Origin: a bacterium
GTDB lineage: Bacteria; SAR324; NAC60-12
Assembly: GCA_965209155.1 (NCBI GenBank)
Contig: OZ242383.1
Location: 4,194,201-4,258,200 of the forward strand
Reading direction: 5' to 3'
Length of the DNA stretch: 64,000 nt
This document shows, one piece after another, positions 7,206-63,666 of the stretch; position 1 is the stretch's first letter; every line of letters starts with the position of its first letter. The notes under the pieces were generated by a model, which saw only the letters and a list, made by a program, of their open reading frames with translations, was not told the DNA's origin and ran no database searches. A program made the position numbers and the translations under genes.

Positions 7206-7417
7206 GTAACTATTCAGGTCTCTGAAAAACCCGTTCAGTTAAATATCATTAAAAAGATTCCCGGAGAGGAACGATCGTTTTCAAATCCTCCCACGATATT
7301 GTTCCATTGATCGGGAACCCTCTCTTTCACTAAAACAACTCAGTGAAGGCATGAGTTTAGCACTACTACTACTTGCGCAATGTCAACCCCATATTAAAAA
7401 AAAATGCAGGATTCGTA
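7206..7417. repeat. Left copy of ~212-bp imperfect inverted repeat bounding the 7.2-14.3 kb accessory block
   Basis: Reverse complement of 14068-14282 aligns over ~212 bp at roughly 88-90% identity (begins GTAACTATTCAGGTCTCTGAAAAACCCGTTCAGTTAAATATCATTAAAAAGATTCCCGGAGAGG); outer end is ~29 nt upstream of the SBP start codon. Confidence 0.8.
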
Positions 7418-7660
7418 AAAAAAATGAAAAATCTATCAGTCAGGGAGATCCACGTTCTAAGCGCTCTTGCTTCCATGGCTCTCGTTCTTTTTCAAAGAGT
7501 GGACTGGCTTCTTGAAGAGCCTCGAGGTGGGGAATCGTGGTGAGAAAAGTTGATTTTCTCTGATGTCTGCGACTAATGACCTGGAAAAAGAGGCTGCTTC
7601 CTTGTTGATCCAGGACTTTGTATTTCCCGAGAGACGGAATCATCCGCCTGGCGAATCCTT

Positions 7661-8920
7661 CTAGACATCTTCATCCTTCTCAGTTTCCTGCTCCGATTCA
7701 GGAACTTCTTCATAGCTGACTCTGAATTCGGTTCCCTCTGTTTCGGGGTGTGAATTGGGGTACAAACGCAACAGGTCCCATTCATTTATCGACGCTCGGA
7801 CCTTGTATCTCATCCTGTTTCGATATCCCGCCCCACCTACCATGCTCTTTAATGGTGGGGCTTCCCATCCATAGGCAACGCTGTAGATTTCCCGAAGTTT
7901 TTCGACGGTCGCTTTCACGTCTTCTGCGGTCGGGGGTTCTAGTGCAATAGTCTCCTGCTCAAGGCTCCGCATACCCACTTCAGCTCTGTCCGCAGCGTCA
8001 ATATTTCCACGGGAACGCAAACGGGAACCTGCCGAGTCGAGGTCCCGCTTGCCAGTTAAAATGGCTGTAGCGAAGTCGTCAGTTACCGTGCCAGCAACAA
8101 CCAGTCCTGGACATGCTTTAGCAGAAACCTCTCCCAACCAGAAGGCCAGCTCTGCATAGGAACGAGCTCTTTGAAGTGGTCCATAAGAAGCGACTAATTC
8201 GACTTCGTCTAACAAAACAACCCAACCATTGTAGCCTGCCGCCTTGATCAACTCTGTTGCGAACCGTAGCCGTAGTGGAGGTAATTCTCTCGCTTTCGGC
8301 GCTTTGAAGGGAAAATTCTGTAACTGACCTATTGCTTTGAGGCCATCTTTTACCTTAGCCATCGCAATCCGCTCTCCCGACCAGAACGCTCTGACTTCAT
8401 TAATCAGTTCAAGATCGTTTGTCCTTTCATGGAGCATCAAGGTTGCCGGGAAAACAGGGTGCAGTTGTCCACTTCGATTGGCCCACTGAAAAAAATGCGC
8501 ATAAGCATCTGTTTCCTGTTCAAGACTGAGTCCGATTTCTTCCATAAGCTGCCCGGTTCGGTCTGGTATCCGGCCGTTGTCTATCGCGGATGTGAATACC
8601 TTAGCCTGGTCATAGAGCGGCGTCTCTTTGCTGATAGCTACTCTACTACACACAAAACCCCGCTTCAACGCCAGGTGTTCCAGATAGGAAAGCAGGTGAG
8701 ACTTGCCTGTGCCAAAATCTCCGGAAACCAATATCCCCAAGGAACGGGAAGGAGGATTATCCGGATCCGTACACTTGGCCAAGAGTTCAGTGAACTGACT
8801 TACTACTTGAGACTGACCACATCCCAATCGTTTTACCGATTCCTCATTGGGCACGCCACTCCGCAGGGCTTCCAATGCCTGCCTGCAAGAAAAAGCACTT
8901 TTATCTATATCGGTACCCAT
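7661..8920 (-). CDS. P-loop NTPase of unknown function (third gene of three-gene operon)
   Basis: 419 aa; Walker A GDFGTGKSHLL and Walker B-like VVLLDEVE; acidic C-terminal tail; 16 nt downstream of the preceding ORF. Confidence 0.7.
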   Translation of the reverse strand: MGTDIDKSAFSCRQALEALRSGVPNEESVKRLGCGQSQVVSQFTELLAKCTDPDNPPSRSLGILVSGDFGTGKSHLLSYLEHLALKRGFVCSRVAISKETPLYDQAKVFTSAIDNGRIPDRTGQLMEEIGLSLEQETDAYAHFFQWANRSGQLHPVFPATLMLHERTNDLELINEVRAFWSGERIAMAKVKDGLKAIGQLQNFPFKAPKARELPPLRLRFATELIKAAGYNGWVVLLDEVELVASYGPLQRARSYAELAFWLGEVSAKACPGLVVAGTVTDDFATAILTGKRDLDSAGSRLRSRGNIDAADRAEVGMRSLEQETIALEPPTAEDVKATVEKLREIYSVAYGWEAPPLKSMVGGAGYRNRMRYKVRASINEWDLLRLYPNSHPETEGTEFRVSYEEVPESEQETEKDEDV

Positions 8921-8936
8921 ACGGATTTGTCCCTTC

Positions 8937-9887
8937 TTAAAAGAGTTGCACCAAAGGAGCTATAGGATTCACCAGATTTTTATCCCGAACATCATCCATA
9001 ACTCTTGTCATAAGGGCAGGATAAATACCAAACCCCCGGGAACGAGCATCCTGCTCAAGAAATGCGCCATCCGTCACGATCACAAGTAAAGTACTAACCA
9101 ATTGCTCAGTTCTATCGATTAATTGCCTCAAAAGTTCGTAGTGATCCGTCGTCATGCTTTTAGTGTAGTATCTGAGCCCATCTACCGGATTACGGGCAAG
9201 CGTCACACGGGAATTGTCGAGCAGAATCACGGTTCCTGCATGTCCCGTATACTGGAAATAGTAAAGTGCCGATTCAATGAAATACCTCGCTGTTTTGCGG
9301 TTGATGCTGGTGTAGATCGAAAATGGCCTGACCGCGCCAAGTTTGGCCTCTCCTGTTAGCCAATCAATCAGCGCTTGACCTTCGTAGGATTGATTTCCAC
9401 GGTTGTTCTCGTATCGGCAAAGATGAGTCATAGCAACCCTGAAATCTTTAGTCATACGATATTTTTTGGTAACTTTATTTTCTATTTGAGGTCTCAGCTC
9501 CTGCAGTACGGATTCCAACTCGAGATCATTGACTTCTCCCATAGCCTTATAAATGTTATCGGTTTGATGCGAATCAATGGAATCAACCCGATAGCCAATT
9601 TCCTTGGCCATGCGTAAGAGCAAGCGACGGGCCAATTTCCGCCAGTCAACCTGCTTGGCCATCTCGAAAAAGATGTCTTGGGGCATATGGATTCTGATAT
9701 CTGACGCATCCAGCTTGACAACGACATAATCCTGTTCCTTGCCTCGATTCTCCACTGTTTCATATAAGGTCGGTTTCAAATTTTCCGGGGTCACTGCAAA
9801 TTTTATGGACGCGCCGCCCTGCGGGATGAAAGACGATAAGTATTCGGAATCGATACGTCGCAGCCAATCATGAAGGGATAGGTTCAT
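8937..9887 (-). CDS. Hypothetical protein (second gene of three-gene operon)
   Basis: 316-aa ORF with GGAGG SD ~10 nt upstream; start codon 2 nt from the stop of the upstream ORF; no motif assignable by eye. Confidence 0.6.
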   Translation of the reverse strand: MNLSLHDWLRRIDSEYLSSFIPQGGASIKFAVTPENLKPTLYETVENRGKEQDYVVVKLDASDIRIHMPQDIFFEMAKQVDWRKLARRLLLRMAKEIGYRVDSIDSHQTDNIYKAMGEVNDLELESVLQELRPQIENKVTKKYRMTKDFRVAMTHLCRYENNRGNQSYEGQALIDWLTGEAKLGAVRPFSIYTSINRKTARYFIESALYYFQYTGHAGTVILLDNSRVTLARNPVDGLRYYTKSMTTDHYELLRQLIDRTEQLVSTLLVIVTDGAFLEQDARSRGFGIYPALMTRVMDDVRDKNLVNPIAPLVQLF

Positions 9888-9889
9888 TA

Positions 9890-10681
9890 TTATTTGCCTC
9901 CAATGAATTGGATTCCGTAATATGACACCACTTGCCCGTCGGAACCTACGATGGGAAAACTGCCTCGCGCGCTCCTTGCCAATGTAGAAGAGGGAAAAGC
10001 TACGCGTGCGCCAGACTTTGTACTGGACGGACCATTGATCTCCAAGAAATAAAGGTCCTTTGCAAAATCCAGCTTTTTATAATCATTGCTGGCCCCGGGA
10101 AGAGAGGTGAATGCCTTATAGATTTCCTCTAGAGGTACCACAGGTTCTTTGATTGAAGAACCGACAGAGGAGGGTTTAGCGCAGAGTTTGTAATTAAAGT
10201 ACAAAGCCTCCAAGAAGCGGTCTGAACGAAATCGGGGTGGTTTTTTCTGGTTATTGGTCAGGATGTCAGCAAGGTAAGACGGTCTCAACGTCGATACTTT
10301 TTTCCGATCAATTCTCACTACCTGACTCTCAGGTAAGATTTGAACAATAGACGGGTGAGAAATCAATGCGCCATCTCTTTCATAGAGGTTCAATCCCTTT
10401 CTTTCCGCTGTGTCACATAGCTCGGCAGCATAGTGTTCCTTGAGGTATTCTATCTCTTTTCCATCCTCAAAAGGCCATGTTTCTACCGCGTTTTCCACCT
10501 CCTGCCTTAGAGAACATAGAGCGCTGTTTAACTTTGAAGCAGCCTTTTTTAGTGCGCTGATATCCCCTTTCTTTGCTGCATTCCGTAAAACTCCGGCCAA
10601 CTTTGCAAGTTCTAATGCAGATTTCATTGTTGAATTTGCAGCTTTTTCCGTATCACTGAAGGCCCGTTCAAAGCTCGTCAT
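9890..10681 (-). CDS. Hypothetical protein (first gene of three-gene operon)
   Basis: 263-aa ORF with AAGGGG SD upstream, helical-looking N-terminal half; no recognisable family. Confidence 0.6.
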   Translation of the reverse strand: MTSFERAFSDTEKAANSTMKSALELAKLAGVLRNAAKKGDISALKKAASKLNSALCSLRQEVENAVETWPFEDGKEIEYLKEHYAAELCDTAERKGLNLYERDGALISHPSIVQILPESQVVRIDRKKVSTLRPSYLADILTNNQKKPPRFRSDRFLEALYFNYKLCAKPSSVGSSIKEPVVPLEEIYKAFTSLPGASNDYKKLDFAKDLYFLEINGPSSTKSGARVAFPSSTLARSARGSFPIVGSDGQVVSYYGIQFIGGK

Positions 10682-11604: not shown

Positions 11605-11883
11605 ATGTATCAAAGCAATTTAAGCGATCAGCAATGGTCTGAGATTGAACATTTTTTTAGACGTTCCGATCCCCGAGGTGCCAAAAGTATTCATAGCAAA
11701 CATACCATCGTCAATGCGATTTTATATGTGTTGGAAACGGGTTGTCAGTGGAGACTGCTTCCCCACGATTTTCCTCCCTGGCAAACCGTTTACGATCATT
11801 ATCGCCGCTGGAATCAAAGAGGGATTTGGCAAGAGGTTTTGGATTTCCTCAATGCCCGCACTCGCGTGAAAGAGGGTTCTTAG
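11605..11883 (+). mobile_element. IS5-family (IS4/5 DUF4096-type) transposase N-terminal fragment, IS remnant
   Basis: 92 aa with the characteristic N-terminal region (NAILYVLETGCQWRLLPHDFPPWQTVYDHYRRWNQRGIWQEVL) but no DDE catalytic domain follows. Confidence 0.7.
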
Positions 11884-11935: not shown

Positions 11936-12367
11936 ATGTCCTCAGAAACTTCTCTGATTGAAAAGCTCCAACGCATTGAGCGACTTTATGAAGGAGCCAT
12001 CACAGAAGGGGAACGCCTTGCCGCTGAAGAAGCTCTGCAACGGATCGGGGAAAGATTGCGCAAGATTCAACAGAAGGATCCTGTGGTTGAATACAAATTC
12101 ACCTTTCCCGACTTCTGGAGGCGGCGTTTGTTTGTTGCTCTGCTGAGACGTTACGGGTTTCGTCCTTATCGTTATCGAGGGCAACGTCACACGACAGTGA
12201 TGACTCGAATATCGAAATCATTTGTGGATCAAACTCTCTGGCCGGTCTTTTTAGACTTGTCTGAAGCGTTGGTTTCCCACCTGGATGAGATCACCACCCG
12301 CATCATCCAACAAGCGATTTATTCCGATAGTTCTGAGGCAGAAGAAAGAGACATGCTGCCCGGTTAA
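11936..12367 (+). CDS. Hypothetical protein
   Basis: 143-aa ORF between IS fragment and methyltransferase fragment; charged, helical composition; no family recognised. Confidence 0.35.
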   Translation: MSSETSLIEKLQRIERLYEGAITEGERLAAEEALQRIGERLRKIQQKDPVVEYKFTFPDFWRRRLFVALLRRYGFRPYRYRGQRHTTVMTRISKSFVDQTLWPVFLDLSEALVSHLDEITTRIIQQAIYSDSSEAEERDMLPG

Positions 12368-12390: not shown

Positions 12391-12924
12391 TTGTATGCTT
12401 TCATTAGGCGTAACTGCAGAGTCCCGGACTGTTGGGGACTGAAGGATCGTGACCTGATGGGATTGCCTTGGCGAGTAGCATTTGCATTACAAGACGACGG
12501 ATGGTTGCTGCGCTCAAAAATCACCTGGCTGAAGAAAGCTCCTATGCCCGAAAGCGTCAAGAACCGACCGTCAAACGCCACAGAGGAAATCTTTCTGTTC
12601 TCAAAAAGTGCAAAATACTACTACAACAATCAGGCAGTGCGAGAAGAAACCGGCGCCAATCTCCGGAATTACTGGCTGTTGGGGACGGATGCTGGTGACA
12701 AGCTGCATCCCGCCGTTTTTCCAAAAGAATTGGCACGGCGCTGCATAATCTTGGGTAGCCGTCCCGGAGATGTGATTCTTGACCCGTTTTCAGGGTCGGG
12801 AACTACTGGCATAGCAGCGATCGAGTCAAATCGTCGCGTCGTCCTTATTGAATTGAACGAAGAATATGCGACACAATCCGAAACCCGGATAAATAAGGGC
12901 GTACAGCAAACCTTAGCTGTTTAG
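12391..12924 (+). pseudogene. N-truncated DNA methyltransferase (beta-class N6A/N4C type), C-terminal portion only
   Basis: Contains the region preceding motif I (LHPAVFPKELARRCI) and motif I itself (DPFSGSGTT) plus the upstream ITWLKK segment, but the DPPY-type catalytic motif that lies N-terminal in this class is absent. Confidence 0.6.
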
Positions 12925-12941: not shown

Positions 12942-13238
12942 ATGAGTACACTTTCAGAATTACGGCGAAGTTATCACTCCAAAATTGGCTCGCAAATAGT
13001 CCGATTCTCCGAGAGAAATCGCTTGCTTTATCCAAACTTTGCCGATGGCAGCAGTCAATCCAGCGTTTTCATTGCAAATGGAATAATAGATTGTGTATAT
13101 CACTTCGCTTTGGATGAGTTGCGCCAAGTCTGTGAAGCCATTCCCAAGGTGAAAGATCAATCAGAAATGCTGGCAGTCATGGTCGAAGGTAGTAGACTTC
13201 GTGACATAAGTGATTTGCCTTTCGATATTGTTGTTTAG
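12942..13238 (+). CDS. Hypothetical protein
   Basis: 98-aa ORF only; weak support. Confidence 0.25.
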   Translation: MSTLSELRRSYHSKIGSQIVRFSERNRLLYPNFADGSSQSSVFIANGIIDCVYHFALDELRQVCEAIPKVKDQSEMLAVMVEGSRLRDISDLPFDIVV

Positions 13239-14067
13239 AGGTCAATCGTTGCATTCATTGGATTGTTGAAAAATCCCGTGCAATGGAATCCGTCAAATCA
13301 CCACACCGTTGTATGGAGAGGAGTTTAAATCATGAGTAGCTCGATCCAACAATCCCTGCCCTTTGAAGAAGCAGTACACCTTGAAGGTCCTGGTCGACTC
13401 GGTCAGGCGAAGATCGAGTACGCCCCCGTCCAAAACATTCTGACGCGCGCAAAATGAAGCTTTTAGTGTCCTTCAAATGCACTTGCCGGATCTCGGTGAA
13501 GGAAAGGACGGCTTTGCTCCCCCTTTTGAAACCGAATGAAGGAAAATCCACGATGATTTTCAAAAAAAATTGCATGCTTGTGCTCTCAGGTCTCCACATC
13601 GTGGTCCACAAGCGTTCGATTGAAAGGCAAAGCAATGACTAAAAAGCCGAATCACTATCGCAGCGGATGGTTTATTTTCCGAGTCGGTAACATACGCCTC
13701 GGTATGTACCATCATGGTCTGGGCGATTGATAAAATTAAAGACAAGCGGGTGATACTCTCTCTTTTGCGGCATTGAATAACCCAGGAAATTCTCGCGGCT
13801 GTTTTGAGGTTTTATGAATAATGAGTCTTCCACAAGGTTTAAACCTCAAAAAACGCTATTGGGGCTGACACTTTTGGGCGAGAGGATATTTTTGCGCAAC
13901 GGCAGGTCAAGTTATTGATGAAATGATTAAAAGTTATTTGGAGCATCATTTTGAATCGAATCCTGATGATGATTTTCAGACCGAAGCCTAAACGGGTCTG
14001 AAATGACCCGTATCCGTACTTTCAGTACTTGAGTTTAAACCCTCCATCTTCGGACGGTGTTTGTTTA

Positions 14068-14282
14068 TTTTTTTTACGAATCCTGCATTTTTTCATTTGG
14101 AGGTTGACATTTTGCAAGATATATTGCCAAAATCATGCCTTTACTAAGTTGTTTTAGTGAAAGAAAAGGTTCCCGATCGATTGAGCAATATCGTGGAAGG
14201 ACTTGAAAACGATCGGTCCTCTCCGGAAATCTTTTTTAATGATATTTAACTGAACGGGTTTTTCAGAGACCTGAATAGTTAC
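14068..14282. repeat. Right copy of ~212-bp imperfect inverted repeat bounding the accessory block
   Basis: Reverse-complement match to 7206-7417; outer end ~73 nt upstream of the lipoprotein start codon at 14355. Confidence 0.8.
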
Positions 14283-14354
14283 GTTTTTACTTACTGAAAT
14301 ATAATTCATTTTAGCGTAACTTTTGTTAAAATACCTTTCCCTGGAGAAATTATT

Positions 14355-15341
14355 ATGACGGATACGCCACATGCAACTCCTCAAGATCATAATCAGGATA
14401 TGCTTCCTGCAAAGTTCGTTTTGAATAAATACCGGATCATTTTCGTAGCATTAACGCTTGTCGCGGTCGGCCTCGCCGCATGCGGCGGTGGAAAATCAGG
14501 ATCGGATCCCCTTAGTAGCCTTGAAAGCATCAGAGAACTGACTGGCATGACGGCACCGGTAGAGAAGCCCGCGGCGCAAAAAGCACGAGCACCAGGTATT
14601 GCCTCGCGATCCGACTCTCTGATCATCTCTACGACGTACGTGGAAACGAGCGACGATGAACTTCCCACTTTTAGCTTCGGGGCGCAGTGCGCCGGTACTC
14701 GGTGCACGATATCGGAGCCCAGGATCGGATACGTCAGGACCGTTACCCTGTCTGAACTCGAGACCATAACCCTGTCTGAACTCGAGATCGTGGACGGCTC
14801 TCCTGAAGCAGTTGGAACCAAGCACGGCATCACCCTGATGTCGGTAACCGGCCGGCGCATGGACGATGAGTTCACTACGTTTGGAGCATGGATGGCGCAT
14901 GGCGGGTTTCAGGTTGAGACCGCGCGTGTGGTAATCCCGGATGATATCAGGATGAACCTCGTCTCCGGCCTCGCTTTGGGTGATCTCACGGGCAGCCGTC
15001 CAAGAGGGAGCGCAACGTGGATCGGTCTTATGGTTGGAACGCCTGCCACAGGGGATAACCTCGGAGACAGGCTGCAGGGAGATGCGGCCTTGAACTACGA
15101 CATGAGCGCCGGCGGTGGGCTCGACGTCGGTTTCAGCAGTATCAAGAACATCGACCGTGGCACGGCGCACACGACATCCACAGTGCTATTCGCAGACGTT
15201 CCAATCAGTTCGAGTGGGACGTTTGAAGCAGGCCATGCTGGCAACCGCATCCAGGGCGGTTTCTACGGTCCTGATCACATTGAGGCTGCTGGAATTTTCG
15301 AGCAGTCAAACATCGTCGGAGCCTTCGGAGCAAAACGATGA
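14355..15341 (+). CDS. Surface lipoprotein with TbpB-like C-terminal beta-barrel (handle) domain
   Basis: Lipobox (VAVGLAACGGG) after a signal peptide; C-terminus NRIQGGFYGPDHIEAAGIFEQSNIVGAFGAKR matches the terminal motif of transferrin-binding-protein-B-like lipoproteins. Confidence 0.55.
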   Translation: MTDTPHATPQDHNQDMLPAKFVLNKYRIIFVALTLVAVGLAACGGGKSGSDPLSSLESIRELTGMTAPVEKPAAQKARAPGIASRSDSLIISTTYVETSDDELPTFSFGAQCAGTRCTISEPRIGYVRTVTLSELETITLSELEIVDGSPEAVGTKHGITLMSVTGRRMDDEFTTFGAWMAHGGFQVETARVVIPDDIRMNLVSGLALGDLTGSRPRGSATWIGLMVGTPATGDNLGDRLQGDAALNYDMSAGGGLDVGFSSIKNIDRGTAHTTSTVLFADVPISSSGTFEAGHAGNRIQGGFYGPDHIEAAGIFEQSNIVGAFGAKR

Positions 15342-15498
15342 TGAAAGAATCATTCACTAACGAAAATGCAAAGAAAGGGCTCAATTCTCAGAAGAAATCG
15401 GCTTGTTGGCTGGATCGATCAAAGGGTGACCGGTTGAAGAATTTGATGGTTTTTATATTTTGTGTTTCTTGGTCTCCTCGATTTTGTTGTGGTTCGTT

Positions 15499-15885
15499 TC
15501 AGTCTTTGTTTTGTTTTTCAAGATAGCGCTGAATCTCTTCCAGAGAAATCCGTTTGAGGATCTCAACGGGCGAAAGTCCTTTCAGGCGATCATCGGCCGA
15601 AAAGCGTTTGAGGACTTCATCAGTCGAAAAGCGTTTGAGGACCTCATCGGTCGAAAGCACACCCAAATGATCACGCACATAATCTTTTTGAAAATCTTCC
15701 ATCGTATAGGCCATCTCTAATCCCTCCAATTGATAGTTCTCAAAGAGTTGATTTAATATCGTACTGATTTCCCGGGTATGCCCTCGGTATTGACGCGAGG
15801 CAAATTCCACTTCTCCGGGAATGCCACTGAATAAATGCCAAATCGCATTATGCTCCGCATGAGCGATCTCACTCAGTACAATCAT
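15499..15885 (-). CDS. Hypothetical protein with tandem TDEVLKRFS-type repeats, possibly a gene fragment
   Basis: 128-aa ORF; ~30-bp tandem coding repeats at about 15540-15690; reading frame stays open upstream of the first Met, suggesting truncation. Confidence 0.3.
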   Translation of the reverse strand: MIVLSEIAHAEHNAIWHLFSGIPGEVEFASRQYRGHTREISTILNQLFENYQLEGLEMAYTMEDFQKDYVRDHLGVLSTDEVLKRFSTDEVLKRFSADDRLKGLSPVEILKRISLEEIQRYLEKQNKD

Positions 15886-16140
15886 CCGAATGAGATCACT
15901 CCCCCGCTGAATCTCATATGAAAGCGTTCTGGCTAGAAAGTTTGGAAAAGTAGCGTTTTTTTCTTATTCAAATCGATTTTACTTTCCTTTTCGCTTGTTT
16001 CTGAAAATGGCTCGTCAACCACGCCTTTACTATCCTGGCGCGCTTTAGCATGTGAATCTTCGTGGCCATGGAGGGCAAACCTTTTTTTCTGTCCTTCCTA
16101 CTATCGACAATTTTATCACTTGCTCCCAGATGGTTCCCAA

Positions 16141-16640
16141 TGCTTTGATCACCGGATTCACGCCTTTTGCTTAATGAGCAATCGTGTTCCTCCCTACTCT
16201 CTTCCTCTTTGAAGACAGATCATTCATCAAATGGATCGAGTTTATCAACTACCGGAGAATGAATTAACCCGAGTTCGACATAAATCTTCAATAATAGGAG
16301 TATTCTGGCGTTTATGTCTTTCCGGGCGCAGACCCGAAATCCAGATTTCAGTCTGGCTGCATACCTCTGGATTCCTGGTCAAGCCAGGAATGACACGTTT
16401 TCTCTACAGTCACGAAAGTCGAGTGAAGCCCGCGCGATGATTAGCCTGTTGGCTGTCGATTGGAAGTCCGCCACTATTCGAGTAGTCGGAAAATTTTAAA
16501 TTGAGATGATTTGACGATCAGCTTTGCTATGCACCAGTTGCGACAACGATTGAAGGAATCCGAGGGTCTCCAAATTCAATTAGAGGAACTAAAACGTCAA
16601 ATACTTGCTTGAAGTTTCAAACTTTCAGGCCTGACTCCTT
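16141..16640 (+). repeat. Dispersed ~500-bp repeat, element X copy 1
   Basis: Near-identical to 18060-18556 and, over its 3-prime ~240 bp, to 21961-22200; contains an embedded REP-like hairpin unit. Confidence 0.75.
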
Positions 16641-16833
16641 TTTTTTCACTCCTATAAAGAATTTCATAAGGTGAAGTAGATGTCTGGCCTATGTAGTTCT
16701 GAAAACCGCCGTTATAGCCCATGTAAAAATTCCCGTCCAAATCGCTTGAGTAACCGGGGCGACTGTCTTTCTCAACTCGCTTTTGGTTGTCTACAAAATC
16801 GGACTGTATTTTTATTTCTCGTTTCTTCGCCAT
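16597..16833 (-). CDS. Small hypothetical protein
   Basis: 78-aa ORF with AAGGGAAAG SD, just downstream of the lipoprotein gene; last codons run into element X. Confidence 0.3.
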   Translation of the reverse strand: MAKKREIKIQSDFVDNQKRVEKDSRPGYSSDLDGNFYMGYNGGFQNYIGQTSTSPYEILYRSEKKGVRPESLKLQASI

Positions 16834-16868
16834 AACACTTTCCCTTTCAATCAGAAAATAAATCTAAA

Positions 16869-17591
16869 TCAATTCTCTTTCATAGCTTTCCAACGCTTAA
16901 AAACAAAATCCACCATAAATTTATGAATCTCATATCCTCCATAATAATCATCTCTTAATTTTTGTACCATCGCAACATTAGGAGTCACAAAATTAGAAAG
17001 GTATAACTCATCAAAACGATCCAAATTTATACGATCCACAACAACTTTAATGATAGTATGTTGTTGATTGGACCCTGATAATAACACTAATTGATCATAA
17101 CCATAAGAATCTCTTCTAATATCAAAGCTAATAAAATCCAAAGAGATTAATTCTTCTTCACGTACTAAACTGATAAGTTCCTTCCACTCTCGATCATAAT
17201 AATATGCCCCTAATCCACAACGCTTATTCACATTATCACTCCATCGAGCCACTATTATCACTCTTGAATCATCAGGATATTTTTTCTCTTCGTAAAACCT
17301 TGAATGATAACCCATTATAGGTTGACCAGAAACATCATATTCCTCAATCTGTATCACGCAACCTTCAGGAAAAACTCGCTCAATTTTTTCAAAAAAAGTT
17401 AACTCCATATCAGGTTCAATTTCTGCCTCGACCACCTCAGGTAATACAGGAACTACCACTGAATCTTTGACAGTAGGAATTTGCTGAATACCATCATCCA
17501 CTTGAACACCAGCAACCGGAGCAGTCTCTTGAACCGGCATCGCACAACCAAACAAAAAGACCACTACAAATAACAAATAAAAAATTCTCAT
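16869..17591 (-). CDS. Hypothetical lipoprotein
   Basis: 240 aa; signal peptide with lipobox (FLFGCAM); AT-rich codon usage typical of this island. Confidence 0.55.
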   Translation of the reverse strand: MRIFYLLFVVVFLFGCAMPVQETAPVAGVQVDDGIQQIPTVKDSVVVPVLPEVVEAEIEPDMELTFFEKIERVFPEGCVIQIEEYDVSGQPIMGYHSRFYEEKKYPDDSRVIIVARWSDNVNKRCGLGAYYYDREWKELISLVREEELISLDFISFDIRRDSYGYDQLVLLSGSNQQHTIIKVVVDRINLDRFDELYLSNFVTPNVAMVQKLRDDYYGGYEIHKFMVDFVFKRWKAMKEN

Positions 17592-17642
17592 AAAACTCCT
17601 GTTATCGTACCATTAATAAAAAGGGATTTGTAGGCCATGTGA

Positions 17643-17990
17643 TCAATCATCAATAAACTCCCAACAAGTTGTGTTCGTTACTGCTTCAAATACATCACAA
17701 GCAAGTATTCTTGATGAACCGCCTTTATCATCTTCAATACTTAAATGATACTCTTCTCCATTCTTACATTTAACTGCAATATATAATGCAGCAGTATTCC
17801 AATCAATCCTTCTTATAAAATATTTCGTTACTGCACAAGAGACCCCAGACGCTGGACTAGCGAGCATAGTTAGAAATCGAATTTATTCTTTTTCGCTATC
17901 TCCATAAATTTGATAAAACCAGCGATTTGCATGAATTTGAGAAAACGATAATAAAATTGAAATCAACAGATAACAAATAATCTTTTTCAT
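17643..17990 (-). pseudogene. Secreted-protein gene interrupted by an in-frame TAA stop
   Basis: A 35-codon ORF starting at ~17990 encodes a signal peptide (MKKIICYLLISILLSFSQIHA) and is in the same frame as ORF 17643..17867, separated by a single TAA. Confidence 0.4.
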
Positions 17991-18009
17991 AACACATTCT
18001 AAAGGAACT

Positions 18010-18556
18010 GAAACGTCCAATACCTACTTGAAGTTTCAAACTTTCAGGCCTGACTCCTTTTTCATTATCACCGGATTCACGCTTTTTACTTAATGAGCAA
18101 TCATGTTCCTCCCTGCTCTCTTCCTCTTTGAGGACGGATCATTCATCAAGAGGCTCGAGTTTATCAACTACCGGAGAATGAATTAACCCGAGTTCGACAT
18201 AAATCTTCAATAATAGGAGTATCCTGGCGTTTATGTCATTCCGGGCGAAGACCCGGAATCCAGGTTTCAGTCTGGCTGCATACCTCTGGATTCCTGGTCA
18301 AGCCTGGAATGACACGTTTTCTCTGCAGTCACGAAAGTCGAGTGAAGCCCGCGCGATGATTGACCTGTTGGCATTCGATTGGAAGTCCGCAACAATTCGG
18401 GAGGTCGGAAACGTTTTCAATCGAGATGATTAAACGATTAGGTTTGGAGTGCACCGCTTGAGACCACGATTGAAGGAATCCGAAAGTCTCCAAATTCAAT
18501 TAGAGGAACTGAAACATCAAATACTTGCTTGAAGTTCCAAACTTTCAAACCAGACC
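18010..18556 (+). repeat. Dispersed repeat, element X copy 2 (with tail of an additional copy at its 5-prime end)
   Basis: Aligns with 16141-16640 along nearly the full length; the tail motif CTTGAAGTTTCAAACTTTCAGGCCTGACTCC is present at both ends. Confidence 0.75.
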
Positions 18557-18713
18557 TTGGTACTCACCAATCCCCGCGATATCTGACCGGGTGGAACGAT
18601 ATTCCTTCATCCGGCATTATTTCCAATTTATTTAAATGTTCCTATTATTGAATCAGTCTTTTTATCATAGACCTCAATTGTAGTTGCCAAAATAAACATT
18701 CTGAAATTTTCAT

Positions 18714-19040
18714 CTAATTCACTTCACCTGATAAAATAATTATACAATCATTACTACTGAATAGTCCTGAACGGCAATTTTTATTAAAATAATCCATAAA
18801 ATTTTTTCGGCCAATTCGGCTTAATATATCGGCACTTGCTCGAAGTGTATATCCATCAGATTGTACATCAAAATAATCATTTACTGATAATTTATCAGCA
18901 AAATAACTTGTTGTTCCTGCAAATTTAATCTCGTATCCTATTGACGCAAAATCAAAGGTATAGTCCTTTAATGTGGTTCTAAAAGGTTCGGCTTGAATAA
19001 TATTTACAAAAATTAAACCGATTAAAATATTTAAAGACAA
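18714..19040 (-). CDS. Small secreted hypothetical protein
   Basis: 108 aa with N-terminal signal peptide (MSLNILIGLIFVNIIQA). Confidence 0.45.
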   Translation of the reverse strand: MSLNILIGLIFVNIIQAEPFRTTLKDYTFDFASIGYEIKFAGTTSYFADKLSVNDYFDVQSDGYTLRASADILSRIGRKNFMDYFNKNCRSGLFSSNDCIIILSGEVN

Positions 19041-19104
19041 ATAAACGTTTCATATTGTATTCTCCATATTGAAGGTATTTCAAAATCGATCCAAAATTAT
19101 CAAT

Positions 19105-19455
19105 TCAAACTGAGATTGATTCTTTTTTTTTCTTAGGTTCAATTATTGCCAGGACACCACCTATAAAAGCTAAAACCATAAAAATCGCTACTATCGTACC
19201 ACCTAAAATTGCACCTACAATCGCACAAAGACATGTTATAATTCCCGGGATTCGGCTGTTTGAAGTTAAAGTAATTGCTCCCATAACTATGGTAAGAAAA
19301 GAAAAGAGAACTCCACCCCAGCCGAGACCGATTACTGTATTCGCCCCTTCCGCTTGAAAGGCACCGCCTATTCCACCTATGAATAAAGTTGCACCGGCAG
19401 CAAATACACTGAAAATACCTGCAATTATTGCAATAATTCCTCCTGCTTTTCTCAT
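19105..19455 (-). CDS. Glycine-rich small integral membrane protein
   Basis: 116 aa, three to four hydrophobic segments rich in small-xxx-small glycine motifs, lysine-rich C-terminal tail. Confidence 0.5.
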   Translation of the reverse strand: MRKAGGIIAIIAGIFSVFAAGATLFIGGIGGAFQAEGANTVIGLGWGGVLFSFLTIVMGAITLTSNSRIPGIITCLCAIVGAILGGTIVAIFMVLAFIGGVLAIIEPKKKKESISV

Positions 19456-19525
19456 ATCATCTCCTTTCTGTTATTTTTGCGTCAATAGAATCCATTCGAT
19501 TCTGCCAGAAGTTCTACTTCACGAA

Positions 19526-19822
19526 TTATTTTCTCCTTTTGAAATCTTCTTTGATGACCCGGAACACGTATCTCATCTCGTCCTCAGACTTTTTCCCGAA
19601 ACGTTTTGCCATCCTGTAACCGAGATTAGTCCACGTCAATTTTTTTAATGCCAGTTTCCCAATTTCTTTTTTATTTAAAATTAGATTATTCCAAGAAAAA
19701 ATAAAATTTTCTAAATGCTTATTAGTTGGATTTTTGTTCGTAACATCCTTTACAAACTCTTTATCCAAAGCCAAGCGTTCCAGTTCAGCCAACACTTGCA
19801 GGTGAGTCACTTCTCGATTCAA
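19526..19822 (-). CDS. Small protein, member of local paralog family (LTW-x-LGY-x-M motif)
   Basis: 98 aa; shares a conserved C-terminal core with ORFs 20760..21020 and 21020..21286; a fragment of its 5-prime end is repeated at ~20490-20600. Confidence 0.5.
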   Translation of the reverse strand: MNREVTHLQVLAELERLALDKEFVKDVTNKNPTNKHLENFIFSWNNLILNKKEIGKLALKKLTWTNLGYRMAKRFGKKSEDEMRYVFRVIKEDFKRRK

Positions 19823-19834
19823 TTTGACCTCTTT

Positions 19835-20326
19835 TCACAATTCATTTTTTACTATTTCCTGAATAATTTTTTTAAATCTCTTAAATTCAATCTTTAATTC
19901 TTGTATAGTTTTATCTAATTCAACCATGTTCTTTCTGGAATTCATTTTAAATTCTTCATACGTCATATCAGGATCATATGTAGGTGATAATCGGACACTA
20001 ATAAAAAGAAGAACAAATGAACAAATAAAAACAACAAATGCTCGCTTTCGAGTTGGCAAGTACAAACGAGAAATGGGGTACAACATACAAATAAACGATA
20101 TTATACTAATGATCATAAAGACAAATACTAAAATAATACTTATTTCTTCCATTGTAGGTGGTAATTGGACACTAATAAAAAAAAGAACAAATGAACAAAT
20201 AAAAACAACAAATGCCCGCTTTCGAGTTGGCAAGTACAAACGAGAAATGGGGTACAACATACAAATAAACGATATTATACCAATGATCATACAGACAAAT
20301 ACTAAAATAATGCTTATTTCTTCCAT
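19835..20326 (-). CDS. Membrane protein with internal tandem duplication
   Basis: 163 aa; a ~58-aa unit with a transmembrane helix (MEEISIILVFV...RKRAFVVFICSFVL) occurs twice, from a direct ~186-bp DNA tandem repeat; opposite-strand ORF 19926..20594 judged a shadow. Confidence 0.45.
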   Translation of the reverse strand: MEEISIILVFVCMIIGIISFICMLYPISRLYLPTRKRAFVVFICSFVLFFISVQLPPTMEEISIILVFVFMIISIISFICMLYPISRLYLPTRKRAFVVFICSFVLLFISVRLSPTYDPDMTYEEFKMNSRKNMVELDKTIQELKIEFKRFKKIIQEIVKNEL

Positions 20327-20759
20327 AAATTACCTGTTTTTATTACAACCTAAATTGAGCGATTCTTTTCAAGAAATGGATTTTTCAGATGATTATTGTG
20401 CCCAAGGAATCGAATCATTGAGATATAAGCATTTGATCATCAAATTCATGGAAGTTCGGGTCAGAATGGATCTCAAGTTGATGTTTTCGGCTGTGGGGAA
20501 ACTTCATTTCTCATGCTATGCACACACTCATCCTCAGCCAGGCGTTCCAGTTCAGCCAACACTTGCAGGTGAGTCACTTTTCGATGCATTTTGACCTCTT
20601 TTCACAATTCATTTATTAGTATTTCCTGAATAATCTTTGCTTCACGGCATTCTTTATCTCGTGTTACTTCTTCCAAGCGCTTTAATTCTTTTATCGTGGA
20701 GACAGCGAAAATGACTTATTTCCCGGTGAATTTGAATTCCGTTCTTTTCAGGTATATAT

Positions 20760-21020
20760 TCATGATTTATCTGAATATTCATCAGCCAGGATGCGATAGG
20801 CATAGTCAATGTCTTCCGGATCTTGAGTTTTAAAATACCTGCCCATTTCGTAACCCAGACTGATCCACGTAATATAATTTAAATCAACCGTATCCAATCT
20901 TTTCCCTTTCCAGCCATCACGGAATGCTGATTGTTTATCCTCCGTAGGTGGCTCACGATTATCGGCAAATTTTTCCTCTTGTAATTCCCGAAGACGATTT
21001 AATACATTTTGATATCTCAT
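20760..21020 (-). CDS. Small protein, paralog family member
   Basis: 86 aa; NLTWxSLGYEMG...DPEDIDY...RILADEY core shared with its tandem neighbour. Confidence 0.5.
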   Translation of the reverse strand: MRYQNVLNRLRELQEEKFADNREPPTEDKQSAFRDGWKGKRLDTVDLNYITWISLGYEMGRYFKTQDPEDIDYAYRILADEYSDKS

Positions 21021-21286
21021 TATTCCCTATTATTTTTTGAATATTCATCAGCCAGGATGCGATAGACATAGTCAATATCTTCCGGATCTTGAGTTTTAAA
21101 ATACTTGCCCATTTCGTAACCCAGACTTTTCCACGTGAGGTTATTCGGATTTAATCTTGATATTCCTTTTCCAAACCATGCTTGTCGAAATGCTGATTGT
21201 TTATGCTCCGTAGGTGGCTCACGCTTTTCGACAGGCTTTTCCTCTTTTAATTCCTGAAGACGATTTAAGATTTCTGAATATTTCAT
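21020..21286 (-). CDS. Small protein, paralog family member
   Basis: 88 aa; tandem with 20760..21020, overlapping stop/start (translational coupling). Confidence 0.5.
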   Translation of the reverse strand: MKYSEILNRLQELKEEKPVEKREPPTEHKQSAFRQAWFGKGISRLNPNNLTWKSLGYEMGKYFKTQDPEDIDYVYRILADEYSKNNRE

Positions 21287-21383
21287 AATTCTCCTTTATC
21301 TTTAAGATTTTTCCTTAGGATTTTAAGCAGATATAAAACGTTTTGATATCTGCTTGGTACTCCTTAGAATTAAGATTTGAATA

Positions 21384-21700
21384 TAAAAAAACACTTGAAA
21401 AAATTTGCAAAAGGAGATTGAGCTGGGTTAGTATTTTTGATTGCCGAAAGGAGGATATAAAAAAAGCCCGTCTTCCCTCATGGGAAAATTCTTGAAAAAC
21501 ATTGCCGTGTTTCTCAAGGATATGATGGGTGTCCTGCTCCTCCTTTGGCCTTCTTGCTTTCCTGTCATTTCCTCCCTTTCATCGATGACCGGGCGGCCAA
21601 CTCACTGGGTCTTTCCCTTTTTACCAGGTTATCGATGACGCCAGCAAACTTGGTTTCCGTGTTGGTGAACCTTTTGTTAAGGAAAAAGAAGTTAAGAAAT
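21384..21700 (+). repeat. Dispersed ~320-bp repeat, element Y copy 1 (promoter-like)
   Basis: Shares with 22915-23250 and 25317-25650 a TTGCAA-N17-TAGTAT-like motif followed by an 11-bp inverted repeat CCAAAGGAGGA ... TCCTCCTTTGG about 85 nt apart. Confidence 0.65.
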
Positions 21701-21960
21701 CTGGTTCAATTTATCTTTCAGATCCGATACCTGTTCCGATGAAATTGGAATTGAAAATTCCCCATAAGGAATATTTGACATGGGTACAGGATGAGAGAGT
21801 GGCTTCCTGGGCCGAATCAAAAGCATTTTAGAATTTTCTTCATCTTCTTTAATACTGACATCTGCTTCAAATTTAACATTCAACGTTACTTGTGAATTTT
21901 TATCCATATTTATCTTCTTTTTTTTTGAAATCGATATTGATTAATTTTTCTCTGTACTTT

Positions 21961-22200
21961 TGAAGGAGTTGAGTAAAACCCGCACGATGATTGGCTCGTT
22001 GGCTTTCGATTGGAAGTCCGCAACGATTTGGGAGATCAAAAAATTTGCAATCGAGATGATTCTATGATCAGCATTGGAATTCGTCGGTTGAGACCAAGAT
22101 TGAAGGAATCCGAGGGTCTCCAATTTCAATTAGAGAAACTGAAACGTCAAATACTTGCTTGAAGTTTCAAACTTTCTGGCCTGCCCCCTTTTCAATATGA
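21961..22200 (+). repeat. Element X copy 3 (3-prime ~240 bp only)
   Basis: Aligns with the 3-prime half of 16141-16640. Confidence 0.65.
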
Positions 22201-22213
22201 AAACTAAAGAGAT

Positions 22214-22891
22214 TTAAAGACCTGTAATGAATAGAATGAAATAACCATCATATTTAATTAATTTTTCAATTCCATAAGTAGGGATGCCTATAGTAAAATC
22301 AGAACGAACCTCCATAGAATTTGTTTGAGTAGGAACGTCATTAATATAAACACCAAAATAACCGATTGATAGAGGTCTTTCATACGGAATTATTTTGAAT
22401 CGGATTTTAAAATCTGATAATTGAATAAATGATGCAGCAGATGATTCAAAAAAACTTTCCATTTTCACACGTAGTTCGGGGGGGAAATGTAAACCTAGCG
22501 TCCTAACGCCTTCATCATTAGGGAAATAAGTAATATTAATTATTTCTTCATCAACATATTTACCATCCCTTTCTTTATCTAAAAAAGCGGGAATCGAAAA
22601 AGAGACCATATGTTTAAATAGTCCTTTTTCTTCACATCCTAAATATTCTGCCCCTTTGAAAATAAAAGGAATTTTTGCTTGTAATTCAAAAACTGTATCT
22701 TCTGGCAAATTACTTTTGCTCTTAGTACATCCCTGAACTTCAATATTCATAATTCCATTAACCTCTATCGGATCTGTCCCTTCTTTAGCAAAATTAGCGA
22801 GGTCGATTTCCATAAATAAATCTAGATCACAACCTGAAATCAAAACTACAATTAATAACAAACCCAATATGCTGAAAATTGACTTTTTCAT
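22214..22891 (-). CDS. Hypothetical lipoprotein (paralog of 23258..23911)
   Basis: ORF 22214..22903 trimmed to MKKSIFSILGLLLIVVLISGC (lipobox); GGAG SD upstream. Confidence 0.55.
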   Translation of the reverse strand: MKKSIFSILGLLLIVVLISGCDLDLFMEIDLANFAKEGTDPIEVNGIMNIEVQGCTKSKSNLPEDTVFELQAKIPFIFKGAEYLGCEEKGLFKHMVSFSIPAFLDKERDGKYVDEEIINITYFPNDEGVRTLGLHFPPELRVKMESFFESSAASFIQLSDFKIRFKIIPYERPLSIGYFGVYINDVPTQTNSMEVRSDFTIGIPTYGIEKLIKYDGYFILFITGL

Positions 22892-22914
22892 ATCAAACTC
22901 CAAATATAATTTAT

Positions 22915-23250
22915 CAAATAATACTTAAAAAGTTTGCAAAACAGGATTGACAGGGTTAGTATTTTTGGTTGCCAAAGGAGGAAATAAAAAAGCCCGTCCT
23001 CCCTCTTTGGGAATTTCTTGAAAAACATTGCCGTGTTTCTCAAGGATATGATGGGTGTCCTGCTCCTCCTTTGGCCTTCTTGCTATCCTGTCATTTCCTT
23101 CCTTTCCTTAAAGACCGGGCGGTAAACTCACCGTGTCTTTCCCTGTTTACCAGGTTATCGATGTTGCCAGCAAACTTGGCTTCCATCTTTGTAAATCTTT
23201 CGCAATCTCTTCCGCTTTCCGATGAATCATTTCAGAAATTTTCTGTCATT
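22915..23250 (+). repeat. Element Y copy 2
   Basis: See 21384-21700; lies between the two paralogous lipoprotein genes. Confidence 0.65.
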
Positions 23251-23257
23251 GAAATTG

Positions 23258-23911
23258 TTAAAAATTGTATGATTGAGTACTGAATACGACAAATTCCTTC
23301 ATTTCATTTGATAACAAAACCCTTGTCCCGTAATGGGGTATTCTTACAGAGAACTCAGAATTCAGTGTAGTATCTATAAATTGGTATGGTTTATCATTCA
23401 AATACACTCCCATTCCTTTTACATTCAATGGAGTCAAATCGGGTAAGATTTGGAATTTTATATTAATATCATCCATTTTTATTTCATCAGACGCAGATAT
23501 TAACAAATTCAATTTCCCTTTTAATCCTGGAGGAAATGAAAAAATTAATTCTCTTTCACCATTTTCAAGTTTAAAATATTCTAAATTTGATATTTCATCA
23601 TCCACTGGTTTGTCATTGTCATTATTATCAATATAAACTGGAATTTCAAATAACAAGTAATAGTCAAAACCCGAACGATCACAATCCTCATATTTTGCCC
23701 ATTTGAAGACATAAAGTAATTGTTCTTTTAATTTACTGACATCATCACTATCACACACATTAACTTCCACTGCCAATCGACCTTTTATAAGAGTTGATTT
23801 ACCATCATCAGTAAATAGATTGAGATTAACTGGTATATCAATAAAAATATCACAACTGGCTATAACTAAAGATATTACTAGTAATTTTATACAACAAACA
23901 ATCTTCCTCAT
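23258..23911 (-). CDS. Hypothetical lipoprotein (paralog of 22214..22891)
   Basis: ORF 23258..23956 trimmed to MRKIVCCIKLLVISLVIASC (lipobox); shares domain order and several motifs with the neighbouring lipoprotein. Confidence 0.5.
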   Translation of the reverse strand: MRKIVCCIKLLVISLVIASCDIFIDIPVNLNLFTDDGKSTLIKGRLAVEVNVCDSDDVSKLKEQLLYVFKWAKYEDCDRSGFDYYLLFEIPVYIDNNDNDKPVDDEISNLEYFKLENGERELIFSFPPGLKGKLNLLISASDEIKMDDINIKFQILPDLTPLNVKGMGVYLNDKPYQFIDTTLNSEFSVRIPHYGTRVLLSNEMKEFVVFSTQSYNF

Positions 23912-24106
23912 AAGACATTCTCCATGAAAATAATTGCAAATGAATATGGTCAGCATAGTAAAAATTGAAATTGTTCTTGAAGCTATTCAATTTGAAGAAA
24001 AAATTATTTTTGGCTGAGCTGCTTGAAATCGGATTCGCCCAACGTTTAGCTTCAATTGTTTTTTTTTGGAAAAATCCCCAGCTCAATCAACAAACTATCA
24101 TCTCCT

Positions 24107-46799: not shown

Positions 46800-47243
46800 A
46801 TGTCGAGACAAGAAGTAACTGAAAAATTGTTGGACGCGAAAAAGAAAAAAGGCGTCACTTTTGAAGAAATCGCAGCTGTGGTCGGAGGAGACAAAGTGTG
46901 GATCGCGTCGGTGATGTTCGGACAAAACAGCATGGAAGCGGAACAAGCGAGGAATCTCGCGGAATACCTGGAGCTGGGAAGCGACGTTGCCGAATCGATC
47001 CAGGAATGTCCGATGAAAGGGGACCTGAACCAGACGGTTCCCATCGATCCCCTCATTTATCGTTTTTACGAAATCACCCAGTGCTATGGGAGCAGTATGA
47101 AAGCCATCATACATGAAATGTTCGGGGACGGTATCATGAGCGCAATCGATTTCAGTATCGATATCAGCAAAAAAGAAGATCCCAAAGGAGACCGGGTGGT
47201 GGTCACCTTTGATGGAAAATTTTTACCCTATCGTAAATGGTAA
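46800..47243 (+). CDS. cynS: Cyanase (cyanate hydratase)
   Basis: 147 aa; C-terminal half (IDPLIYRFYE...GDGIMSAIDF...KFLPY) matches CynS closely. Confidence 0.9.
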   Translation: MSRQEVTEKLLDAKKKKGVTFEEIAAVVGGDKVWIASVMFGQNSMEAEQARNLAEYLELGSDVAESIQECPMKGDLNQTVPIDPLIYRFYEITQCYGSSMKAIIHEMFGDGIMSAIDFSIDISKKEDPKGDRVVVTFDGKFLPYRKW

Positions 47244-47810
47244 GTCATCACCACCGGCAGAGCCGGTGGCTTGAAGAGGCCCCCAGTATGAGGGCAAAAC
47301 GTGTTCGTCATCGTAAGACGTGCTCGTGCTCGTGAACGAAAAAGGCTGCCATGTTAGATCATGAAAAACTCGATGTATACCAATGTTCCATCGAATTTTT
47401 AGCGTTATCTGTCCAAGTCATCGAAACATTGCCAAAAGGATACTCAGCCTTAGTTGACCAACTGAAAAGGGCCTCATGGTCGATTCCTCTCAATATCGCA
47501 GAAGGCTGTGGAAAAAATTCCTTTGCTGACAAGCAACGATTCTATGCATTGGCCCGAGGTTCCGCAATGGAATGCGCTGCTATTCTCGATGTTTTAAACG
47601 TGTTGAAGATCATCCAGCCTCCTTTATTTGACGAAGGGAAACAGTTACTTCATCGCATTGTTTCTATGTTAACCAAAATGTGCCGTCAAATTCACTGACC
47701 GTTCACGAGCACGAGCACGGCTAACGGACACGGATACGTTTCTCATGTCTGACCGGCAAAGCCTATTAGGTTCGCACCAGCAGAGCTGGTGGTTTAATGA
47801 GATTAATTAT
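47244..47810 (+). mobile_element. IVS-like cassette carrying four-helix-bundle protein gene (copy 2, intact)
   Basis: Begins immediately after the cynS stop; palindromic ends (CCACCGGCAGAGCCGGTGG and ACCAGCAGAGCTGGTGG) and long inverted stem arms GTGCTCGTGCTCGTGAACG / CGTTCACGAGCACGAGCAC flanking the ORF. Confidence 0.7.
47351..47698 (+). CDS. Four-helix-bundle protein (23S rRNA intervening-sequence protein family)
   Basis: 115 aa; hallmark motifs LDVYQ, QLKRASWSIPLNIAEG, ARGSAMECAAILDVL. Confidence 0.8.
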   Translation: MLDHEKLDVYQCSIEFLALSVQVIETLPKGYSALVDQLKRASWSIPLNIAEGCGKNSFADKQRFYALARGSAMECAAILDVLNVLKIIQPPLFDEGKQLLHRIVSMLTKMCRQIH

Positions 47811-63645: not shown

Positions 63646-63666
63646 TGGTTCACCGGACGTCAGTGA

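Follow-up and report, generated by a model that had tools for sequence, protein, structure and literature searches.

This report concerns three adjacent genes, here called A, B and C, on the minus strand of a 64-kb stretch of bacterial DNA (64,000 nucleotides of contig OZ242383.1, SAR324 lineage; the whole stretch is referred to as the window). The trio is one conserved operon-like unit that recurs in at least 10 phyla or classes; it codes for a protein without family assignment (A), for a predicted catalytically dead ATPase (B) and for an ATPase of the AAA+ superfamily with intact nucleotide-binding motifs (C). The ATPase core is constant, while the superfamily 2 (SF2) helicase that accompanies it in many relatives is exchangeable. 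Our interpretation, to which we give slightly better than an even chance, is that A-B-C forms the conserved core of a horizontally mobile conflict module not described so far, probably directed against phages or plasmids. An earlier reading of the same letters, hereafter the original prediction, had proposed an uncharacterized three-gene defence-type operon at this place.

Proteins A, B and C

Listing of the open reading frames (ORFs) of the block returns exactly three, all on the minus strand and in the order A-B-C, with the lengths of 263, 316 and 419 amino acids (aa) given in the original prediction (coordinates in the table below). The spacers of 2 and 16 nt and the separate Shine-Dalgarno (SD) sites that it described can be read directly from the junctions. 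At the A/B junction the stop codon TAA is followed by "ta" and by the ATG of B, with GGAGG 9 nt upstream; at the B/C junction TAA is followed by 16 nt (gaagggacaaatccgt), which contain the SD sequence GAAGGGA, and then by the ATG of C. Gene A is preceded by AAAGGGG. In the relatives, the usual junction consists of overlapping stop and start codons. The three ORFs are genuine genes rather than chance reading frames, since hundreds of full-length homologues exist for each and the ratio of nonsynonymous to synonymous substitution rates (dN/dS) between the window and the related locus L033 is 0.16 for A, 0.09 for B and 0.14 for C, at dS 0.44-0.50, as found under purifying selection.

Protein C matches Pfam PF10923 (BrxC_BrxD, formerly DUF2791) with E=1.7e-23 and 83.7 bits, the gathering threshold being 22.2. 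Among the PADLOC models, the best match is BrxD (2.5e-17), followed by SngB (7.6e-11); the latter reaches 39.7 bits over two partial stretches and is weaker than the BrxD match, which points to kinship with SngB rather than to clear membership of its family. The score against the NCBIfam BREX_BrxD equivalog NF033438 is 62.7 bits, below the curated cutoff of 350. The earlier guess of a BrxD/DUF2791-like NTPase is thus borne out at the family level. Both the Walker A (GDFGTGKSHLL) and the Walker B (VVLLDEVE) motifs, already recognized in the original prediction, are intact; the pattern G-x-F-G-x-G-K-S-H and the D-E pair of Walker B are invariant in 21 of 21 aligned C homologues. Searches of the PDB with single proteins and with profiles found no solved structure, by sequence, for the families of A, B or C; the best profile matches of C (BrxC-BrxB 9zn5, TnsC and DnaI) have E values of about 0.05 and cover the P-loop only.

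The first two proteins had been regarded as unassignable to any family; this holds for A, while B proved to be a member of PF10923. B matches this family with E=8e-13 and 48.5 bits (cutoff 22.2), over profile positions 65-331 only, and scores 42.9 bits against NF033438, again below the cutoff of 350. Its homologues (698, of about 318 aa) are all unnamed, and PF10923 was found in 120 of 120 of the matches listed. Pairwise BLAST detects no similarity between B and C, and hhalign with smaller alignments matched no more than 36 columns; with profiles of 22 B and 21 C sequences, hhalign produces a colinear alignment of 216 columns (E=0.002, HH-suite probability 13.8%). Here the P-loop GDFGTGKS of C stands opposite "TPE--NLKP" of B, and "GWVVLLDEVEL" of C opposite "GTVILLDNSRV", so that LLDEVE is replaced by LLDNSR. 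Both GK[ST] and the Walker B glutamate are missing from the homologues as well, down to actinobacterial ones with 29% identity. Thus B, far from being an unrelated small partner of the ATPase as previously supposed, is by homology a degenerate PF10923 paralogue of it, whose conserved active-site losses mark it as a predicted pseudo-ATPase.

Protein A has no Pfam family match, TerB, TerB_N and TerB_C included, and no match to SngA in PADLOC at E<=0.1. In PHROGs it weakly matches one family of unknown function, and neither B nor C finds a match there. In the structural model of A, a long helical hairpin at the N-terminus (residues 4-68) is followed by a small beta-meander (about 100-129) and by a C-terminal domain of helices and strands with a weak resemblance to a winged helix; a Foldseek search of the PDB with this last domain gave nothing significant. 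All 252 close homologues of A are unnamed. A profile search over 1.84 billion cluster representatives retrieved 831 matches at E<=1e-3 and 261 at E<=1e-30, nearly all of them stand-alone proteins of 250-280 aa.

Gene order, helicase partner and distribution

In total 37 loci were collected, about 27 of which are independent and have enough sequence to show the gene order. A-B-C occurs in the same order and on the same strand in all of these (about 27), with genes that overlap or nearly abut and with identity of A down to 28%; the recurrence of the three-gene synteny in unrelated genomes, suggested earlier as a check, is therefore observed. The matches in GTDB are all metagenome-assembled genomes (MAGs), from Nitrospirota, Dehalococcoidia, Caldilineaceae, Vicinamibacteria, Latescibacterota, Binatia, Desulfurellaceae, Entotheonella and Rhodobacteraceae. 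Bin names such as Plut_, SB06xx, RHO1, IRC1, CO36xxx, the Aplysina bins and Entotheonella seem to belong to sponge and coral holobiont projects, and the close clade would thus derive from MAGs of sponge or coral symbionts. A distant branch, in which the trio is kept, is found in soil-type Actinomycetota MAGs (A about 28% and C about 40% identical).

The tree of C conflicts with taxonomy: Nitrospirales and Entotheonella proteins are 82% identical, Chloroflexi and Nitrospira proteins 78%, and those of two Nitrospira-type bins only 64%. Horizontal transfer is therefore indicated. The 85-91% identical copy of the trio in the related loci L032-34 occupies a chromosomal site different from that of the window.

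An SF2 helicase is attached to the trio in about 60% of the loci, so that the description as a three-gene system applies to the conserved core, to which most relatives add a fourth gene. In 13 loci a SNF2 helicase of 560-760 aa directly follows C; in L018 only a C-terminal remnant of it is left, and in L027 the SNF2 gene is interrupted. Elsewhere the arrangement or the type of motor changes: L036 has a 1198-aa SNF2 protein directly upstream of A, L035 a 497-aa XPB-like helicase (DEAD/ResIII/ERCC3_C) after C, and L019 a 1914-aa DruE-like helicase after C. In PADLOC the top matches of the linked SNF2 proteins are the cores of ZorD, DpdE and DrmD, with SngC outside the top 25. The first approximately 180 aa of the linked SNF2 helicase match no Pfam family, and in L001, L008, L022 and L026 this piece is a separate ORF (about 13065-13640); it may act as an adaptor to the A-B-C core. 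In L020 a second, N-terminally truncated copy of the helicase (13164-17146) lies right after the first.

No helicase adjoins the trio in about 12 loci, namely the window, L031, L032-34, L002, L007, L009-11, L013, L014, L016 and L037, and tblastn found no trace of a SNF2 helicase in the 64-kb window. The helicase-less form is not simply decaying, because dN/dS is 0.09-0.16 between the copies of the window and L033. As a separate observation, in two of the helicase-less Nitrospira loci (L009, 7862-9922; L011, 7886-9910; both minus strand) a DSHCT-domain protein, Ski2/HelY-like, adjoins A upstream in divergent orientation; this could be a coincidence or an alternative helicase partner.

Relation to known systems and rival explanations

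The trio is absent from PADLOC v2.0.0 (2023, PDC candidates included), NCBIfam, PHROGs and PDB sequences; no Pfam or NCBIfam model of it exists, the literature searched contains no description, and all three proteins are hypothetical or nameless in every source. Within these sources the system is undescribed, as the original prediction supposed. The nearest families are informative: across PADLOC, NCBIfam and the literature searched, BrxD and SngB occur only in phage-defence systems. BrxD is an AAA+ protein of the ORC/Cdc6 clade without a DNA-binding domain, tightly paired with the helicase BrxHI, of which it has been proposed to be the loader or activator in BREX types 2 and 6 (PMC12839542). 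Shango, a validated anti-phage system, is composed of the TerB-like protein SngA, the ATPase SngB and the DEAD/DEAH helicase SngC (bioRxiv 10.1101/2022.11.11.516204; 10.1101/2022.05.11.491447).

In its design the module can be grouped with the BrxD-BrxHI dyad and with SngB-SngC of Shango. With the former it shares a stand-alone PF10923 ATPase of the ORC/Cdc6 clade, linked in the relatives to an SF2 helicase; unlike it, the trio encodes a second, dead ATPase paralogous to the first, and the novel protein A. With Shango it shares an operon made of a small non-enzymatic partner, a BrxD/DUF2791-type AAA+ ATPase and an SF2 helicase. However, A lacks the TerB domain that characterizes SngA, the trio possesses the additional dead paralogue B, and the helicase of the relatives is SNF2 or XPB-like rather than SngC and is dispensable or absent in about 40% of loci. 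Membership of Shango was rejected on the missing TerB domain, the lack of a helicase in the window and the SNF2 rather than SngC type of the relatives' helicase. A further parallel can be drawn with ORC/Cdc6 and Cdt1, the loaders of eukaryotic and archaeal replicative helicases. It is an analogy only, the sequence relationship being limited to the AAA+ core; differently from those loaders, in the trio the winged-helix-like domain, a weak structural match, resides on a separate coiled-coil protein, and the motor of the relatives is an SF2 translocase instead of MCM.

On these comparisons a mechanism can be proposed. C would be a working ORC/Cdc6-type AAA+ ATPase, with which B would co-assemble as a hetero-oligomer, giving interfaces and no hydrolysis; A, with its coiled coil and winged-helix-like domain, would give a DNA- or trigger-binding surface absent from stand-alone BrxD-type ATPases. 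When foreign DNA or a phage cue is sensed, the ATP-bound complex would load or activate an SF2 translocase of the SNF2 or XPB type, encoded next door in most relatives, and this would interfere with the DNA of the invader. Since no helicase is linked to the window copy, this copy would either use one encoded elsewhere or rely on ATP-dependent DNA binding alone.

The genomic context agrees modestly with a role in conflict. Defence, toxin-antitoxin or mobile-element genes lie within 8 kb of the trio in 7 of 8 independent Pfam-annotated neighbourhoods, and comprise restriction-modification (R-M), Septu-like AAA_15+HNH, GmrSD, toxin-antitoxin, Fic, HNH/Vsr and transposase genes; in the window they are a decayed R-M pair and insertion-sequence fragments. 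Examples are a Septu-like AAA_15/21 with HNH in L001, a NgoFVII-like restriction endonuclease in L002, GmrSD with a methyltransferase in L004, Gp49/HTH, PIN and Fic in L035, transposases and AbiEii/DUF5615 in L036, and a SLFN-like helicase with HNH and Vsr in L037. Three ordinary ABC-transporter ATPases of the window (PF00005) match the PADLOC models mad3, mad8 and AriA with E of 1e-10 to 1e-33; the mad3 and AriA matches near the GTDB loci were discounted, because this control gives the same matches.

Several observations weigh against the conflict-module interpretation. The trio contains no nuclease or other obvious effector domain, and about 40% of the loci, the window among them, have no linked helicase. 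The homology of B and C is weak at the profile level and rests mainly on the fact that both match PF10923. In L032-34 the trio sits among housekeeping genes only, housekeeping families dominate among 123 neighbour ORFs of 22 GTDB loci, and several of the apparent defence matches in that survey are ABC-transporter artefacts. The defence-island context is real but modest. The defence island of the original prediction is therefore retained in part: insertion sequence (IS) scraps and R-M remnants are present, but the R-M pair of the window is decayed and the neighbours in the survey are mostly housekeeping genes.

The rival that survives best, although we consider it unlikely, is that the window trio is a disabled remnant of a four-gene A-B-C-SNF2 system, decaying like the adjacent R-M pair, with the helicase possibly lost through the IS21 event that left a scrap of IstB after C. 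Indeed, the IstB fragment lies exactly at the position held by the helicase in the relatives, the 64-kb window keeps no trace of the latter, the neighbouring methyltransferase and endonuclease are visibly decaying, and the helicase is degraded in other lineages too (L018 and L027). However, no ORF of the trio is disrupted in the window, in L031 or in the helicase-less L032-34 (85-91% identical), the low dN/dS between helicase-less copies was measured at dS of about 0.5, and trios without a helicase are found in at least 12 loci of several phyla, the actinobacterial L037 included; moreover, the remainder of the 4.26-Mb genome could encode the helicase.

Less probable is a module in the service of a mobile element, that is an AAA+ device for target selection, replication initiation or partition, comparable to IstB, TnsC, MuB or loaders of the DnaC/ORC type with an accessory DNA-binding protein, and carried as selfish cargo. 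Transfer across phyla, the transposase and IS fragments that are often nearby and the inverted repeats that bound the block in the window are in line with it, as are the nearest PDB sequence neighbours, which are AAA+ proteins of the ORC/Cdc6 and DnaC/IstB/TnsC types (E about 0.05-0.2). Against this, the PDB matches are restricted to the P-loop, whereas the models matched specifically are those of two defence families, BrxD and SngB; the approximately 27 loci show no consistent linkage of the trio to a transposase, integrase, relaxase or replication gene; tblastn with A against 72,556 plasmids and 50,697 phage genomes gave no homologue; and the inverted repeats are not present at the other loci except in strain L031. 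A role in transposition was rejected on the lack of a consistently linked transposase and the absence of the trio, judged by A, from the plasmid and phage collections.

Lower again in our estimation, and improbable, is an accessory of host DNA metabolism, in which the trio would be the loader or regulator of an SF2 translocase for repair or transcription-coupled processes and have no part in conflict. Repair and transcription, too, make use of SNF2 and XPB-like helicases, housekeeping genes surround many of the loci and no toxin or nuclease domain is present; conversely, the distribution is patchy, the gene tree conflicts with the species tree, the location varies between close relatives and the closest sequence families are defence-specific. 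Finally, an orphan piece of BREX (type 2 or 6), made of BrxD and accessory genes, is very improbable: B and C do match PF10923 and the BrxD models of PADLOC and NCBIfam best, but C remains at 62.7 bits against the 350-bit cutoff of NCBIfam BrxD, no PglZ, PglX, BrxC, PglW or BrxHI is encoded in the window or beside the trio in the approximately 27 loci, and the partner helicase is SNF2 or XPB-like, not Lhr/Ski2-like as BrxHI. BREX membership is effectively refuted by the below-cutoff score together with the lack of linked BREX core genes and of BrxHI.

Returning to the conflict module as the preferred interpretation, its confirmation as a defence system would add a widespread family, of hundreds of clusters at 50% identity, that is wholly missed by current annotation tools. 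It would also offer a natural dissection of the partnership between BrxD/SngB-type ATPases and helicases, as it occurs in BREX and in Shango, since here the helicase is exchanged (SNF2, XPB-like), relocated or missing around an unchanging ATPase core; and the obligatory pair of live and dead AAA+ proteins with a separate winged-helix-like subunit would be a testable parallel to loaders of the ORC/Cdc6/Cdt1 type. The reading of sponge-symbiont defence repertoires would be affected as well. In 2016 PF10923 was counted as a Pgl gene that is present in sponge metagenomes and absent from seawater (PMC5099237); this module, with its two PF10923 genes per locus, may have contributed to that signal. 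A bolder proposal, which we find possible but rather doubtful, is that A-B-C is a self-sufficient, hitherto unrecognized and nuclease-free immune sensor-motor. The coiled-coil/winged-helix protein and the pair of active and dead AAA+ proteins would together make up an ORC-like ATP-gated DNA clamp, which would act on invader DNA by itself or as the loader of interchangeable SF2 motors. Horizontal transfer would have carried it through the holobionts of sponges and corals and through soil Actinomycetota, and it would account for part of the sponge signal.

Neighbourhood of the trio in the window

The trio and its surroundings are listed in the table. The lower GC content noted by eye in the original prediction is confirmed by measurement (0.40-0.49 over 7-14 kb vs 0.52-0.60 in the left flank), and the IS5 fragment and the truncated DNA methyltransferase that it placed next door were both found by Pfam. 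The stub of a NgoMIV-type endonuclease is an additional neighbour.

Table. Features of the trio and its surroundings in the window
Feature	Position	Strand	Remarks
Inverted repeat, left arm	7206..7431		about 226 nt
IstB (IS21 helper ATPase) pseudogene fragment	7440..7643	minus	weak PF01695 match, E=0.002
Gene C	7661..8920	minus	419 aa; active-type BrxD/SngB-like (ORC/Cdc6-clade) AAA+ ATPase
Gene B	8937..9887	minus	316 aa; BrxC/BrxD-family AAA+ paralogue, predicted catalytically dead
Gene A	9890..10681	minus	263 aa; family-less protein
IS4/IS5 transposase, N-terminal fragment	11605..11883	plus	PF13340/DUF4096, E=2.5e-28
N6_N4 DNA methyltransferase, 5'-truncated	12391..12924	plus	Pfam; profile positions 61-219 only
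NgoMIV-type endonuclease, C-terminal stub	12942..13238	plus	98 aa; Pfam; adjoins methyltransferase
Inverted repeat, right arm	14061..14282		pairs with left arm

A fuller version of the island is present in strain L031 (99% identical), with a methyltransferase of 290 aa, a NgoMIV-type endonuclease of 237 aa and insertions of IS21 and IS66; in that strain the methyltransferase/endonuclease pair is split by the IS21 insertion. The island of the window is a decaying R-M locus beside an intact trio, because the versions in L031 are longer and those of the window carry deletions. Over 77 nt the IstB fragment shares 97% identity with the IstB gene in the intact IS21 copy of L031; it occupies the space between the left repeat arm and C, and thus testifies to past IS activity at the position that in relatives belongs to the SNF2 helicase. 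A 143-aa ORF without family match (11936-12367, plus strand) is kept in L031, between the IS4/5 and IS66 fragments.

The inverted repeats that bound the block, formerly estimated at about 212 bp, are real and slightly longer, about 226 nt; the arms are 87% identical overall and their outer 50 nt are identical. There is no evidence that a mobile element terminates in them. Apart from strain L031, none of the loci has the repeat, and an exact 38-mer of it has no match in the JGI metagenomes. RNA folding z-scores of the two arms (-2.4 and -1.2) are not convincing, and Rfam gave 0 matches on the whole window. Both arms immediately precede a gene that faces outward: for the left arm this is a SBP_bac_5 gene with its start at 7177 (minus strand), for the right arm a gene for a TbpB-like lipoprotein with its start at 14355 (plus strand). 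Each arm contains an outward-reading promoter-like sequence, TTGACA-N17/18-TAAACT or CAAAAT, and the flanks share GTTTTT. The arms may represent a duplicated promoter/leader rather than transposon ends.

No BREX core gene occurs in the 64-kb window, the rest of which is housekeeping. A separate tract, in which the GC content is far lower than around the trio, extends over 16000-24000 (0.33-0.41 vs about 0.52). Long ORFs are scarce in it, whereas long direct repeats abound: repeats of 226-300 nt at a spacing of about 1.9 kb, tandem copies of 174 nt and a 63-nt unit present four times. It includes two paralogous DUF7424 genes, both on the minus strand (22214-22903 and 23258-23956), and its repeats of about 140 nt at 16266-16406 and 18185-18324 are also present in the relative L033. 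This tract looks like a separate, repeat-structured gene-cassette region. In addition, an element of about 570 bp is present twice in the window (47241-47810 and 63080-63646) and carries a gene of the 23S_rRNA_IVP family (PF05635; 47351-47698). A third copy is found in L031 at the site equivalent to position 1615 of the window, where the window is empty; the element is thus an insertion polymorphism of a small mobile unit.

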